Source of the DNA: Candidatus Levybacteria bacterium CG2_30_37_29
Lineage (GTDB): Bacteria > Patescibacteriota > Microgenomatia > Levybacterales > GWA1-39-11
Length of the DNA stretch: 49,602 nt
Assembly: GCA_001873215.1 (NCBI GenBank)
Contig: MNYS01000006.1
Location: 122,839 to 172,440, forward strand
Direction: 5' to 3'
Below the pieces are notes generated by a model that did not search any database, was not told the DNA's origin, and worked only from the letters and a program-made list of their open reading frames with translations. Shown one piece after another: positions 638 through 6,822 of the stretch. Made by a program: the position numbers and the translations under genes. Each line of letters opens with the position of its first letter. Position 1 is the first letter of the stretch.

Positions 638-1333
638 ATGGAAGACAACTATGACCATTTACAAATACCAGAGTCAAGAATCGAGGAAGTGGTTGTCTCT
701 TCAGACGAATTTGCAGGAATAATAAATTCAGAAAAGTTTTCAAAAGCACTTGCTCTCGCTAGTAAAACAACTAAAAAAACGAGCCGCGAAACCGGGTTCA
801 GCGTTAGAATTGATAACAACAATAAAGTGTTTATAGGAGAAATCACAGCAGGAGCATTTGATGAAATTTCAAATGAAGTCGATACTCAAATTATATCCAA
901 GATGGATACAAATGAAATAGATATGGATTGGGAACAAAATATATGTTCGACTCCTTTATTAAATTTTCATTTTCATCCAGATTCGGAGGGTGCAGTAATA
1001 CCATCTAATGCCGATATAAGTAATTTTTTACGTGAAGAATCGCAAGCTTCTATAGGAGTAGGGCACGTGTTAAAAGACGGATCAGTAGACCTTCTTATAG
1101 TCAAACCTAAGAATTACCCTTTATATAGAGATCTACTCGAGGAATACGCTGATCAATTTGCCCACAGACCGACACAAGCAGAAATAATTCAGGGTCTTGA
1201 GAAAGCAGGGCTGTCCAGTATAGTTGTGCATTTTACTAATAAAAACGGGAAATTATCTCTCGACCCAGAGTCGGCAAAAAAAATTAATGAGTTGGGCAAG
1301 CTGAAGTTTAGTAAAGATAGTTTTTTATTTTAA
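638..1333 (+). CDS. Hypothetical protein with JAB/MPN+ metalloprotease-like motif
   Basis: ETGF upstream Glu plus HFHP-x6-PSNAD (HxH-x7-S-x2-D type); TATAAT just upstream of ATG. Confidence 0.55.
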   Translation: MEDNYDHLQIPESRIEEVVVSSDEFAGIINSEKFSKALALASKTTKKTSRETGFSVRIDNNNKVFIGEITAGAFDEISNEVDTQIISKMDTNEIDMDWEQNICSTPLLNFHFHPDSEGAVIPSNADISNFLREESQASIGVGHVLKDGSVDLLIVKPKNYPLYRDLLEEYADQFAHRPTQAEIIQGLEKAGLSSIVVHFTNKNGKLSLDPESAKKINELGKLKFSKDSFLF

Positions 1334-1430
1334 GAATAACTAAACAACTATCAATTCATTGATTTGTTGGTTGTTGACTCGGCATTCCTAAATCAGCTGA
1401 AAGTCACCGGTGGATTAAGATGAATTTAAT

Positions 1431-2417
1431 ATGCGATATGAATATGTTTATGATACACACGCGTCTTCCCGTCGCCTAAGACAAAGGCGTCTTAAGAGAA
1501 TAAGGAAATTTTTTTTCTCCCTTTTTATACTTTTAATTTGTCTTGTAATTTTTTTATTTATTTTTAAAAAAGCTAGAAGTAACAATTTAAGCCAAGAAAT
1601 TATTTCTCCTCTTGCGCAATCTTTTAACGCATCAGTTGATACTGTCAAAAAAATTATTAATCCATCATCTCTGGATTCTGTTGTAAAAAAATCGCTTAAT
1701 AATACTAATGGAACATATGCTGTTGCTATAAAAAATCTAAAAACCGGCGAAGCGTATTATCTGTCTAAAAACAAAAAATTTGAATCGGCAAGTCTTTATA
1801 AGTTGTGGGTTATGGTAGTTGCTTTTCGGCTAATAGAAAAAGGTCAACTTGATCCTGATAAAGTTTTGGTCGAAGATATTACCGATTTAAATATCGAATT
1901 TAATATTGCAACCGATGATGCGGAATTAACAGAAGGAACGTTTGAGTTAAGCGTAGAAAGAGCAATTAAGCAAATGATAGTTGTCTCAAATAATTATGCG
2001 GCACTATCTTTGATAAACGAAATCAGATCTTCTAATATAGAAAAATTTTTGAAAGACGAAGGATTTATTAATTCCACGACTAACCCATTGCCTACAACTA
2101 CGGCTTCGGATATTGCGTCTTTTTTTGAAAAATTGTATGTTGGAAAACTTGCCGGTAAAGAGTCAACTGCAAAAATGATCGAAATTCTTAAAAATCAACA
2201 GATAAACGATAGGCTCCCAAAATATTTGCCTGAAAAAATTGAAGTAGCGCATAAAACAGGAGAGTTAGATAAAGTAAAACACGACGGCGGAATTGTATTT
2301 ACACAAAAAGGGGATTATGTAATTGTTGTATTGTCAGAAAGCGATTCTCCGAAAAAAGCAGCGGAACGCGAAGCCCAACTTTCAAAATCCGTATATGAAT
2401 ATTTTGAGAAGAGGTAA
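1431..2417 (+). CDS. Membrane-anchored class A beta-lactamase-like serine hydrolase / PBP-A type
   Basis: N-terminal TM helix; SxxK (ASLYK), SxN (SNN), KTG (HKTG) and HDGG motifs. Confidence 0.85.
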   Translation: MRYEYVYDTHASSRRLRQRRLKRIRKFFFSLFILLICLVIFLFIFKKARSNNLSQEIISPLAQSFNASVDTVKKIINPSSLDSVVKKSLNNTNGTYAVAIKNLKTGEAYYLSKNKKFESASLYKLWVMVVAFRLIEKGQLDPDKVLVEDITDLNIEFNIATDDAELTEGTFELSVERAIKQMIVVSNNYAALSLINEIRSSNIEKFLKDEGFINSTTNPLPTTTASDIASFFEKLYVGKLAGKESTAKMIEILKNQQINDRLPKYLPEKIEVAHKTGELDKVKHDGGIVFTQKGDYVIVVLSESDSPKKAAEREAQLSKSVYEYFEKR

Positions 2418-3782: not shown

Positions 3783-3997
3783 CCTCCGCCTTTGGCGGAG
3801 AACCCTGCCTCGCTTCGCGAGGTAGGAATTTTTCCGATTAATTTCGGAGTTCTTTCCCTGTTTCTTAGAAACAGGATTTTAAATTTAGCGGAGTTGTCCG
3901 CCTCTTCGGCGAATTTAACTTCGTTAAATTTTTTTGAGAATTTGATCCTGGTTCAGGATGAACGCTAGCGGCGTGCTTTAGGTATGCAAGTCGAACG

Positions 3998-4313
3998 GCT
4001 CACTCTTTTTGGTTAGTATTTGATACGATAGTTGTATGTACTACGTATATGTTTTAAAAAGCCAAAAATACAAAACTATTAAAATCTATATTGGATTTAC
4101 TTCAGATTTGAAAAGACGAGTTGAGCAGCATAATAGTTTAGAAACAAAATCAACAAGGTTTGGGATTCCCTGGAAGCTTGTTTATTATGAAGCGTTTTTA
4201 AACAAAATAGATGCTGTACAACGCGAATTACAATTAAAAACAGGAAGTGGTTCAATTGGCTTTTTAAAACGTAGAATTAAAAAGTCTTTGGATACTAGTT
4301 GAAAAGAGTGAGC
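3998..4313 (+). mobile_element. Intervening sequence in 16S helix 6 (V1): long stem enclosing an ORF
   Basis: GCTCACTCTTTTTGGTTAGTATTTGA (3998-4023) pairs with TTGGATACTAGTTGAAAAGAGTGAGC (4288-4313) using G-U pairs. Confidence 0.9.
4036..4302 (+). CDS. Small GIY-YIG nuclease family protein inside the 16S gene
   Basis: YYVYVLKS...IYIGFTSDLKRRVEQHN...PWKLVYYEAF...RELQLK. Confidence 0.92.
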   Translation: MYYVYVLKSQKYKTIKIYIGFTSDLKRRVEQHNSLETKSTRFGIPWKLVYYEAFLNKIDAVQRELQLKTGSGSIGFLKRRIKKSLDTS

Positions 4314-5002
4314 AGTGGCAGACGGGTGAGTAACGCGTAAGAATCTACCTTTCAGTGGGGCACAACAGTCCGAAAGGATTGCTAATTCCCCATAATATCT
4401 CCGGATTAAAGGACTTAACTGTCCGCTGAAAGAGGAGCTTGCGCCCTATCAGCTTGTTGGTGAGGTAAAGGCTCACCAAGGCTATGACGGGTAGCTGGAC
4501 TGAGAGGTCGGCCAGCCACAGGGGCACTGAGACACGGGCTCCACACCTACGGGTGGCAGCAACCAGGAATATTGGGCAATGGACGGAAGTCTGACCCAGC
4601 GACGCCGCGTGGAGGATGAAGGTTTTCGGATCGTAAACTCCTTTTGCCAAGCCTTTCACAGCTTGGAGAATAAGCATCTACTAACTACGTGCCAGAAGTC
4701 TCGGTAATACGTAGGATGCAAGCGTTATCCGGATTTATTGGGCGTAAAGAGTGTGTAGGCGGTTTTTTAAGTCGCGATTTAAAGCCTGTGGCTTAACCAC
4801 AGTGTTGGTCGCGATACTGAAAAACTAGAGGGATGTTTGGGGTACAGGAACAGTTGGTGTAGCGGTGAAATGCGTTGATATCAACTGGAACACCGAAGGC
4901 GAAGGCATGTACCTGTAACTCTCCTGACGCTGAGACACGAAAGCTAGGGTAGCGAAACAGATTAGAGACCTGTGTAGTCCTAGCCGTAAACTATGGATGC
5001 TA

Positions 5003-5157
5003 GATACCCCGGAACCAAGTGCATAAACTTGGAATTTTCAATTTTAAATTTTTAATTTACAATAAATGTTTCAATGTTTGAAAACTTCAAATTCACTGAA
5101 AATTGTAAATTGAGAATTGGAAATTTCCAAAAGCTGTGCTTTTGGTTTTGGGGTGTC
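5003..5157 (+). other. Expanded 16S helix 26 (V5) with non-coding AT-rich hairpin insertion
   Basis: GATACCCC/GGGGTGTC basal stem encloses ~140 nt with nested inverted repeats (TTGGAA/TTCCAA; AATTTACAAT/ATTGTAAATT). Confidence 0.85.
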
Positions 5158-5179
5158 GTAAGCTAACGCGTTAAGCATC

Positions 5180-5239
<60 letters not shown>

Positions 5240-5363
5240 CCAGTGGAGCGTGTGGTTCAATTTGAGACGAAACAAAAAACCTCACCAAGGTTTGACATGC
5301 TATCGTTTTATACTTTATGAAAGTTTAGTAGATCTATAGAAATATAGATGATAGCACAGGTGT

Positions 5364-5398
<35 letters not shown>

Positions 5399-5695
5399 CC
5401 CTTAAGTGGGGAAACGAGTGCAACCCCTATCCTGTGTTACATATCACAGGAGACTGCCCCGACTTTGTCGGGGAGGAAGGCGGGGCGGACGTCAAGTCAG
5501 CATGACCCTTATACCTTGGGCTACACACACACTACAATGGCGAAAAACAATGGGTTGCAAGCTCGCAAGAGCAAGCTAATCCCTCAAATTTCGCCTCAGT
5601 TCAGATTGGGGTCTGAAACCCGACCCCATGAAGTCGGAATTGGTAGTAATCGCGGATCAGCGTGCCGCGGTGAATACGTTCTCGGGTCTTGTACA

Positions 5696-6550
5696 AATTA
5701 AATGCGCCTGGCAGTTTAATAAGTCTCGCTGATAGTTTTCAGTCGGGATCCCGCACGAATATGAAATTCGTCGGGGCAAGATGGTGGAAATCCATCTTAA
5801 TAGTTGAAGAACAGTCCCGATGGGTAACCAATCGGGATGAAGGGTTCGATGTATCGAAAAGCAGCCTAAAATAAAAAAAGCATTTCGACCTTTAAGTGTA
5901 CTAAGGGGAAGAAATATACAAAAAGCTTTTTAGGATGTTTGAAACTGTTTATTAAATGACCCAGGGAGATCCTATGTGCATCAGAACTATAATAGGCCAT
6001 AGGAAGTCAGCTGATTCCATAGTACCTTCAGATTATGTATAATTTTAATGTGGAGGGAAGGGATGAACTCTAAATTAAACCCTTATTATTTAGTAGGTTT
6101 AGTTGATGGCGAAGGTTGCTTTAGCGTAACCTTTAATAATCACAAAAGCAACCGCTTAATAGAAGTGAGATTGATTTTTGAGATTGAGCTAAGAGAGGAT
6201 GATAAAGAAATTTTAGAGAGAGTAAAAGAAACTTTTGAATGTGGGAATTTATACAATCTTCAATATGAGAGATACAAAAAATGGAGACCACATTATAAAT
6301 ACAAGGTTTCAAACTTGAGTGATATTACTAAAAAAGTAATATCTTTCTTTAAAAAATATCCTCTTCAGGCAAAGAAGAAAAAGAGTTTTGAGTTGTTTGC
6401 TCAAGTAGCAAAACTTATTACTCAGAAACGCCACTTAACCCGCGAAGGGGTAGAAGAAATTAGATTACTAAAAGAGGATTTAGCAAGAGACTCGCTGGAT
6501 GCGGGAAACCCGCACGTCCAGTGGGGAGCGGAATAGTTCTTAACCGCGAT
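5696..6550 (+). mobile_element. Group II intron in 16S after A1396 (E. coli numbering), encoding a LAGLIDADG endonuclease
   Basis: Removal restores CTTGTACA|CACCGCCCGTCA; domain V CGCTGGATGCGGGAAACCCGCACGTCCAGTG (6493-6523); ends in AT; EBS1 TGTAC (5897-5901) in a stem-loop is complementary to exon end GTACA. Confidence 0.9.
6048..6536 (+). CDS. Single-motif LAGLIDADG homing endonuclease (start may be 6063)
   Basis: YLVGLVDGEGCFSV motif; F..YPLQ.KK..F..F and HLT.EG..I C-terminal pattern. Confidence 0.93.
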   Translation: MWREGMNSKLNPYYLVGLVDGEGCFSVTFNNHKSNRLIEVRLIFEIELREDDKEILERVKETFECGNLYNLQYERYKKWRPHYKYKVSNLSDITKKVISFFKKYPLQAKKKKSFELFAQVAKLITQKRHLTREGVEEIRLLKEDLARDSLDAGNPHVQWGAE

Positions 6551-6822
6551 CACCGCCCGTCAAGGCAGCAAAGTCGGTAGCTATTGAACCCCGATTATTC
6601 GGGGGAGATAGAGATCGGTGATGAAGCTTAAGTCGTAACAAGGTATCCCTAGCCGAAGCTGGGGATGGATCACCTCCTTTCTAAAAAAACTTTTCTTCCC
6701 GATTTATTTGGAAAGAAGTTTAAATTTTTAGATTTCTTTCCTACCACTATCTGAACACCTTTGAAATTTAATGCGATGATAAGGGCAGCCTTTGGCTACC
6801 ACTATCTAAGCATCTTTTTATT

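Follow-up and report, generated by a model that had tools for sequence, protein, structure and literature searches.

What occupies the decoding-centre strand of the only 16S ribosomal RNA (rRNA) gene in the small genome of a groundwater bacterium, and by what means could it be removed and spread? We addressed this question for an 855-nucleotide (nt) element at positions 5696–6550 of a 49,602-nt stretch of DNA from Candidatus Levybacteria bacterium CG2_30_37_29 (GCA_001873215.1, contig MNYS01000006.1); the whole of this stretch is called the window, and its coordinates are used throughout. The element is very probably a compact group II intron that has no reverse transcriptase (RT), carries a LAGLIDADG gene and belongs to a lineage seated at positions 1395–1400 of the 16S genes of Candidate Phyla Radiation (CPR)/Patescibacteria; it would remove itself from the RNA and move by homing at the DNA level. 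A first-pass annotation, made from the sequence alone, had described an RT-less group II ribozyme after 16S A1396, and Rfam, covariation and Pfam analyses bore this out.

Boundaries of the insertion in the 16S gene

The host gene ends at about 6681 with the sequence GGATCACCTCCTTTC and is the only 16S match in the whole genome (1.0 Mb, 99.6% complete). Exon 1 stops at 5695 with CTTGTACA (GTACA), exon 2 resumes at 6551 with CACCGCCCGTCA (CACCG), and deletion of 5696–6550 in silico restores the universal 16S sequence. We take the last base of exon 1 to be E. coli A1396 and the start of exon 2 to be the decoding-centre strand with C1400 to A1408. This numbering agrees with the name of the intron family rns-1396 and with the 'position 1400' of an earlier survey (PMC11270868).

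To survey the junction, 40 relatives were searched with the region 5560–6680, and the 29 loci returned were examined. The exon halves abut exactly in 24 of these loci, two (L010 and L013) carry an intron two bases downstream, and three were not assessable. The junction is therefore intronless in 24 of the 26 assessable relatives, and the distribution of the intron is patchy. Because 24 relatives show the exact uninterrupted junction, we set the boundaries at 5696 and 6550, which confirms the exact exon restoration (GTACA/CACCG) noticed at first pass. The features discussed below are collected in Table 1.

Table 1 Predicted features of the intron and its host gene (window coordinates)
Feature	Position	Strand	Basis
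Host 16S rRNA gene, carrying several insertions	3930..6681	+	Rfam SSU_rRNA_bacteria, 1195.5 bits from 3930
Intron-binding site 1 (IBS1) GUACA, last five bases of exon 1	5691..5695	+	Complementary to the loop of exon-binding site 1 (EBS1)
Group II intron, 855 nt	5696..6550	+	Ends set by 24 intronless relatives; Rfam matches; covariation
5′-terminal linker AAUUAA, between splice site and conserved 5′ motif	5696..5701	+	Family alignment
AUGCG, displaced and altered counterpart of canonical GUGYG	5702..5706	+	Alignment columns
Domain I; basal stem CCUGG 5707–5711 / CCAGG 5961–5965	5707..5965	+	RNAalifold consensus, 23 sequences
Nested double-hairpin repeat, 53 nt (UCYCG-hairpin-CGGGA, UCCCG-hairpin-CGGGG)	5724..5776	+	Absent from other introns; model R2
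Domain I internal hairpin with GUAA loop	5815..5837	+	RNAalifold consensus
EBS1 hairpin, 7-nt loop 5895–5901, EBS1 UGUAC 5897–5901	5889..5907	+	Stem covaries (RNAalifold)
Domain II, stem UCCUAU / AUAGGA	5970..6004	+	RNAalifold covariation
J2/3 and domain III (GAAGUCAGC ... GAAGGG)	6005..6062	+	Rfam group-II-D1D4-1, 5988–6063
Single-motif LAGLIDADG homing endonuclease gene, 157 amino acids (aa), in domain IV	6063..6536	+	Pfam LAGLIDADG_1
Domain V: CGC triad 6493–6495, GAAA(C) loop 6505–6509, AC bulge 6514–6515	6493..6523	+	Sequence, Rfam, covariation
Domain VI, bulged AA 6542–6543	6528..6547	+	Lower-stem covariation
Exon 2 start, CACCGCCCGUCA	6551..6562	+	Abuts exon 1 directly in 24 relatives

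Group II ribozyme fold

Two Rfam group II models match the element. The first, Intron_gpII, had been named at first pass as the model to search with; it aligns to exactly 6490–6550, as expected, at 34.3 bits (E 9.9e-5 in a 1.1-kb search), which falls short of its gathering score of 40. The second, group-II-D1D4-1, scores 35.5 bits against a gathering score of 35. Because these scores are borderline, homologues were collected for covariation analysis. In brief, the endonuclease protein encoded in the element was used as a query and returned 41 loci from the genome collection, many of them in metagenome-assembled genomes (MAGs) titled Candidatus Levybacteria, Daviesbacteria, Shapirobacteria, Campbellbacteria and other CPR groups. 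A covariance model of domains V and VI (R1), built from 20 of these sequences, matched in 33 of the 44 sources searched, including 30 of the 41 endonuclease loci.

The 3′ domains of the intron covary strongly. In a model-fitted alignment of the 33 homologues (A2), 98.9% of cells in domain V are paired, with compensatory changes in 6 of 12 pairs, and the lower stem of domain VI shows compensatory changes in each of its four pairs. None of 500 shuffles reached the observed pairing or covariation score of the two domains, and sliding the partners by 1–3 columns as a control gave 29–46% pairing, against 93.8% observed. A fitted alignment leans towards the structure of its own model; an alignment by plain MAFFT led to the same result (92.6% paired, 0 of 500 shuffles). 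MAFFT set the introns inserted after 1398 one column off in domain VI, and A2 was used instead. The CGC triad, GAAA-type loop and AC bulge of domain V, together with the terminal AT (6549–6550), are all present where the first-pass annotation had seen them.

For the 5′ two-fifths of the intron, comprising domains I and II, RNAalifold on 23 sequences predicts 55 pairs, of which 44 have compensatory changes. Each pair of the domain I basal stem is changed in compensation in 2–10 sequences, and in the domain II stem five of the seven pairs show such changes (in 3 to 12 of the 23 sequences), the other two being invariable. The block from J2/3 to domain III is invariant in the family alignment. The candidate gamma base in J2/3 (the central A of GAAGUC-A-GC) is A where the intron ends in U; in L048 and L070, both ending in A, it is U. 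These two introns are close kin, so the change counts as one event. Together, the Rfam matches and the covariation found in all domains tested indicate that 5696–6550 is a group II ribozyme.

The same searches bear on whether the element might instead be a group I intron, or an unclassified insertion with a mere domain-V-like hairpin. In CPR rRNA genes, LAGLIDADG is most often carried by group I introns. Group-I-like insertions make up more than half of those in CPR rRNA (PMC11270868), and the 16S gene of the relative L013 carries a group I intron further 3′ (57.8 bits). However, no group I intron model of Rfam matched 5600–6720 even at E up to 10, whereas two separate group II models do match, and the helices of domains I to VI covary, as does EBS1. 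Group I identity is hardly credible on this record and is refuted by the Rfam search and by the covariation of domains I–II and V/VI.

Exon recognition across insertion registers

The first-pass annotation had placed an EBS1, TGTAC, in a 7-nt loop. The loop is present, its UGUAC (5897–5901) is complementary to the exon end GUACA (5691–5695), and it covaries with the exon in relatives. Among 21 introns with unambiguous ends, 14 lie after 1396, four after 1398 and three after 1399. The loop reads UGUAC where the exon ends in GUACA (register 1396), UGUGU or UGAGU where it ends in ACACA or ACUCA, respectively (register 1398), and GUGAG where it ends in CUCAC (register 1399). In 20 of the 21 introns the homologous loop is the exact 5-nt complement of the exon end, and in the remaining one (L042) the loop, UGUAU, forms one G–U wobble. 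Four further introns (L010, L048, L068 and L070) have ends that are ambiguous by one base; they were excluded from the 21-intron counts because their register would be picked by EBS1 and by the adenosine at position −8 themselves.

Neighbouring registers on the same 16S strand (1395 or 1396, 1398, 1399 and possibly 1400) are occupied in L010, L013, L048, L052–L059, L068 and L070, with a matching EBS1 in each; the intron lineage has repeatedly changed its site. Because the loop tracks the exon across registers, ribozyme-guided choice of the splice site is probably under selection, and among the features compared we take the covariation between EBS1 and exon as the strongest sign of it. This comparative evidence of a ribozyme under selection, with EBS1 following the exon through four neighbouring registers, is one of three things that the present analysis adds to earlier descriptions of such introns.

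Departures from canonical intron ends

The group II anatomy given at first pass needs correction at one point, the 5′ end, while its other listed features stand. In place of canonical GUGYG at the splice site, the window intron starts with a 6-nt linker followed by AUGCG. The same arrangement runs through the family: an A/U-rich linker of 5–7 nt precedes the motif in 25 of 25 introns with defined ends, and the motif itself is A-N-G-Y-G, never GUGYG. Near the 3′ end, a bulged A at −8 (A6543 in the window), the canonical branch-point position, is found in all 21 unambiguous introns, and the stems flanking it covary. With this adenosine retained and a 5′ linker resembling that of hydrolysis-using introns, the first step of splicing could be either branching or hydrolysis.

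Linkers of this kind are on record elsewhere. All members of the rns-1396 family have one (PMC13190283), and fungal rRNA group II introns splice 1–33 nt upstream of a GUGYG-like motif; in the fungal cases summarised, the linker is accompanied by a lost branch site (PMC4424553). A 5′ linker together with a kept branch-point adenosine, which the fungal linker-bearing introns have lost, thus appears to be an unusual combination in this lineage. The lineage would be a natural system for asking whether group II introns that bear a linker remain able to branch.

A LAGLIDADG gene in place of a reverse transcriptase

The first-pass report of a LAGLIDADG open reading frame (ORF) without RT held up: Pfam LAGLIDADG_1 matches the protein at 1.8e-22 (80.6 bits, cut-off 23.1), and Pfam analysis of the ORF translations found no RT domain in the intron. 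The ORF is preceded by a GGAGG ribosome-binding site (6052–6056), and an extra in-frame ATG lies at 6048. Its motif, LVGLVDGEG, keeps the acidic residues. In the PDB the protein matched both halves of the double-motif fungal mitochondrial enzymes I-PanMI, I-AabMI, I-OnuI and I-SmaMI, with two stretches per chain and a best E of 1.9e-39; since each half is matched, the half-size enzyme probably acts as a homodimer.

The ORF is full-length and 68–81% identical to its 11 nearest relatives. Non-synonymous divergence (dN) is 0.14–0.20 against seven relatives and synonymous sites are saturated in all seven, so that a ratio of non-synonymous to synonymous divergence is not computable; low dN beside saturated synonymous sites nevertheless argues for purifying selection on the protein. 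The last 44 nt of the ORF (6493–6536) cross domain V and extend into domain VI. Some relatives have an ORF that is truncated or ends ahead of domain V, and the C-terminal tail is therefore best read as translation through the RNA element and not as part of the enzyme. Two introns, L072 and L073, have no ORF and measure about 390 nt; all that is left of the endonuclease gene is its first 13 nt and a few terminal codons, which suggests that domain IV lost the ORF cleanly. As such copies exist, the ribozyme appears to persist without the protein.

These data also bear on whether the LAGLIDADG protein may now be mainly a splicing helper (maturase) and not a DNA endonuclease, in an intron that is vertically inherited and immobile. 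Purifying selection on the ORF and a genome without an available RT or maturase would suit such a role, and some LAGLIDADG proteins of group I introns are indeed maturases (PMC4424553). Yet the acidic residues of the motif are intact, the intron is missing from most assessable relatives while its nearest copies sit in other genomes, and the ORF-less copies exist; moreover, in one fungal group II intron with LAGLIDADG, splicing was not promoted by the protein (PMC4424553). We regard a present-day maturase as very unlikely. By contrast, the patchy distribution and the purifying selection on an intact endonuclease gene would both fit homing at the DNA level.

Elsewhere in the genome there is one RVT_1 gene, encoding 343 aa, whose best NCBIfam match lies below the cut-off. 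Its locus on contig 10 (L124, 218–2319; RT ORF 1288–2319) holds, beside the ORF, a pair of 127-nt repeats (218–344 and 747–873) that differ by 26 mismatches, of which 23 are A in the second copy. This adenine bias marks the locus as a diversity-generating retroelement and not an intron maturase, and a maturase acting in trans was rejected because the sole RVT_1 gene belongs to that element.

Predicted splicing and homing

In the mechanism that we propose, the ribozyme would fold upon transcription of the only rRNA operon, and its EBS1 loop UGUAC would pair with the last five exon bases, GUACA. The 5′ cut would fall six bases upstream of the altered 5′ motif (AAUUAA followed by AUGCG), with branching left possible by the conserved bulged A, and ligation of A1396 to C1397 would restore the decoding-centre strand. 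In DNA, a homodimer of the 157-aa LAGLIDADG protein would cut intronless 16S alleles, and repair would copy the intron into them; mobility would then be homing at the DNA level, with no RT involved. Since the genome has a single 16S gene, every ribosome would depend on removal of the intron. The first-pass claim that the intron must splice thereby gains indirect support, from the single 16S gene of a nearly complete genome. Seated in the decoding-centre strand of a single rRNA operon, the intron would be a clear example from nature of a ribozyme that a minimal genome cannot do without.

The check for RNA drew on six metatranscriptome runs, which held 7–9% of the sampled words, and three of them were mapped in detail. 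The RNA contigs from these three runs were 41–81 nt long and lay over conserved 16S stretches only. The joint 5695>6551 was present in RNA, with sides of 18–23 nt, and also in a DNA run, with a side of 40 nt; given the same joint in DNA, we attribute these joints to other, intronless organisms. DNA runs, for their part, contained up to 100% of the words of the locus. Contigs from a groundwater DNA run have exon 1 in common and then diverge, at positions 5697 and 5703, into different intron sequences, and several intron variants therefore coexist in the community.

Several points weigh against a self-splicing, homing intron. The two Rfam scores are one below and one barely over the gathering score. 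The 5′ end lacks GUGYG, and the first base is A in every family member. The metatranscriptome runs gave no RNA attributable to this organism, a result in which missing cover of the intron is itself not evidence. A 53-nt foreign insert in domain I, found in this copy alone, could impair folding. Truncated or frameshifted endonuclease genes (50 aa in L047, altered C-termini in L040 and L041) suggest that endonuclease decay occurs in the family. Last, the 16S target appears to have no more than weak palindromic symmetry, around TGTACA, and so suits a homodimeric enzyme only modestly.

Some of these points would equally suit a relic ribozyme that no longer splices itself, with removal left to host factors, or with RNase III-type processing and a 16S in fragments as its outcome, as with some bacterial rRNA intervening sequences. 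The non-canonical 5′ end, the foreign hairpin element that interrupts domain I and the Intron_gpII score under its threshold all speak in this direction, as does the presence of non-intron insertions in the same 16S gene, such as a GIY-YIG ORF in the loop of helix 6. Against a relic, domain V, the bulged A of domain VI and the EBS1 loop are all conserved, and in every register they covary with the exon, a pattern expected only under selection on splice-site choice. As for the nested insert, its site is an unpaired junction and its predicted fold is self-contained. Cutting at 1396 would leave the decoding-centre strand detached from the rest of 16S. A relic is therefore unlikely in our judgement, and a group II intron that splices itself remains the preferred reading.

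Relation to known introns

Elements of this kind are already described in CPR bacteria and in giant sulfur bacteria, and the intron is ordinary for its host group. The known cases listed at first pass, fungal mitochondria and giant sulfur bacteria, left out the closest one, at about position 1400 of CPR 16S genes (PMC11270868). In that survey, Tsurumaki et al. (2024) report 53 group-II-like insertions in CPR 16S genes, only at position 1400 (16IS9). Most of them, 39 of the 53, encode LAGLIDADG proteins of the single-domain LAGLIDADG_1 type, RT occurs in none, and DNA-based homing is proposed (PMC11270868). Such insertions had been seen earlier, and were absent from transcripts, according to Brown et al. 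(2015) as cited there (PMC11270868). The window intron shares with the CPR 16IS9 insertions the host group (its nearest relatives are in MAGs titled Candidatus Levybacteria/Levyibacteriota), the gene, the site, the lack of RT and the LAGLIDADG protein. The 16IS9 paper classifies its insertions by Rfam; the 5′ linker, the branch-point A, the register shift of EBS1 and the nested repeat are not described in the parts of it available to us (PMC11270868). To a specialist the element itself would be unsurprising; the locus is of value for its comparative detail and for the nested hairpin.

For the rns-1396 family of giant sulfur bacteria, Liu et al. (2026) describe a backbone of class IIC, a linker at the 5′ end, a single-motif enzyme encoded in domain IV, no EBS2, and IBS1 and IBS3 only (PMC13190283). 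Compared by described features, the window intron has the same insertion after 16S 1396, the same 5′ linker and the same single-motif LAGLIDADG gene in domain IV. The rns-1396 enzymes were placed beside the fungal mitochondrial lineage (PMC13190283), and this fungal alliance is shared, the best PDB matches of the window protein being I-PanMI, I-AabMI and I-OnuI. Likeness to IIC consists here of the CGC triad and the small size of the ribozyme (about 390 nt in ORF-less copies). The host phylum differs, since the bacteria of that survey are Thiotrichaceae only. In its available text the survey lists no CPR hosts, and the words 'CPR' and 'Patescibacteria' occur 0 times in the text of PMC13190283; with these hosts missing, its Thiotrichaceae-only conclusion for bacteria is incomplete.

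Group II introns with LAGLIDADG ORFs are also known from fungal mitochondrial rRNA genes (Toor & Zimmerly 2002; Li et al. 2011; Mullineux et al. 2010; summarised in PMC4424553), and in two tested cases the fungal endonuclease cleaves intronless targets (PMC4424553). As far as that summary goes, the fungal introns resemble the window intron in their location in rRNA, in having LAGLIDADG in place of RT and in splicing upstream of a GUGYG-like motif. They differ in being IIB1, in having mostly double-motif enzymes and in typically losing the branch-site motif when a linker is gained, whereas the window family keeps the A at −8.

A nested double hairpin and small GIY-YIG genes

The 53-nt insert in domain I is not part of the ribozyme family. 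Its site is the unpaired junction that separates the second domain I stem from the hairpin after it; the insert is absent from 28 of 28 other introns aligned and is predicted to fold into two hairpins with the same stem base, UCCCG...CGGGA. A repeat model (R2) built from 17 copies matches the window at 5722–5782 with 69.8 bits. Across the order the repeat occurs in 40 of 151 genomes, patchily by genus and in up to about nine places per genome; the genome studied here has it in two. Hairpin 1 of the repeat is 96% paired, with compensatory changes in 4 of 9 pairs. Searches of the double hairpin against Rfam gave no family at E ≤ 1 in 14 loci, nor at the gathering score in 20 more.

The second copy in the same genome lies on contig 8 (L002, about 1149–1543, minus strand), at the D-loop position of a duplicated 5′ half of the gene for the glutamate transfer RNA, tRNA-Glu. 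The cassette opens with the initial 11 nt of tRNA-Glu; next come the double hairpin and the remainder of the 5′ half, then an 83-aa GIY-YIG ORF and an intact tRNA-Glu(CUC). The stop codon of the ORF falls inside the D-loop of the real tRNA. At least nine other genomes have such a tRNA-Glu cassette, with the hairpins in either orientation. In all 12 genomes with an orthologue of the tRNA-Glu-linked GIY-YIG gene that is at least 60% identical, the repeat lies 14–80 nt from the ORF. A third setting, in a relative, is a transfer-messenger RNA (tmRNA) gene (L082, 539–941; Rfam 113 bits), missed by ARAGORN, in which the double hairpin replaces the short pseudoknot-1 segment (62 nt, against 18 in the model); a GIY-YIG homologue follows about 120 nt downstream. 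Sites of the repeat in RNA genes are thus domain I of the group II intron, the pseudoknot-1 region of tmRNA and the D-loop of the duplicated tRNA-Glu 5′ half, the last in at least 10 genomes.

Almost every genome of the order has several small GIY-YIG genes, with matches in 140 of the 151 genomes; there are eight in the genome studied here and up to 16 elsewhere. An 88-aa GIY-YIG ORF at 4036–4302 lies in the helix 6 loop of the host 16S gene itself (Pfam 9.7e-14, with PF01541 and T5orf172 the only families that match). The helix 6 insertion is closed by an inverted repeat (3998–4010 / 4301–4313) and is not intron-like. The closest solved chain to the GIY-YIG protein is an uncharacterised UPF0213 protein, BH0048 (E 1.6e-4).

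The nearest parallel is with the Ssn nucleases, which are described as small single-domain GIY-YIG proteins (SsnA, 94 aa) with flanking hairpin repeats (NTS/SRM) that have a TTCCCG...CGGGAA-like core (PMC11893778). The genes of this order likewise encode small single-domain GIY-YIG proteins (83–88 aa), adjoin a hairpin repeat of like core and come with several dispersed copies of it per genome. In contrast to the hundreds of copies reported for Ssn, the repeat is present here in few (two in this genome and at most about nine in relatives), it is a double hairpin, and it lies inside structured RNA genes. Apart from the Ssn paper, a full-text search found no literature on a hairpin/GIY-YIG/tRNA-Glu cassette in CPR bacteria.

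We tentatively suggest that the 16S locus may be a selfish nest of three layers, with an endonuclease gene in a ribozyme and the 53-nt repeat in domain I of that ribozyme. The repeat would be the cognate hairpin of an Ssn-like GIY-YIG subfamily and would insert precisely, without target duplication, into structured-RNA genes of this order. If this is correct, Ssn-type hairpins would be mobile DNA that prefers RNA genes, and ribozymes and tmRNA would tolerate their insertion. The link between the nested repeat and small GIY-YIG genes is in any case a lead on how hairpin repeats spread.

Further observations on the 16S genes

Two expansions of the host 16S gene stand apart from the elements described above: an AT-rich block of roughly 130 nt at about 5010–5150, full of aatttt-type repeats, and an enlarged variable helix at about 5300–5350. 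The group I intron of L013 (Rfam Intron_gpI) is located at 378–589 on the minus strand, near the 3′ end of the same 16S gene that carries its group II intron. Several contigs are titled 'uncultured Gammaproteobacteria' or 'Saccharibacteria' (L033, L035, L036, L040, L041, L043, L048 and L070). Their 16S exon ends are those of the contigs titled Levybacteria, and because the exon ends are identical across differently titled contigs, the record titles look unreliable.

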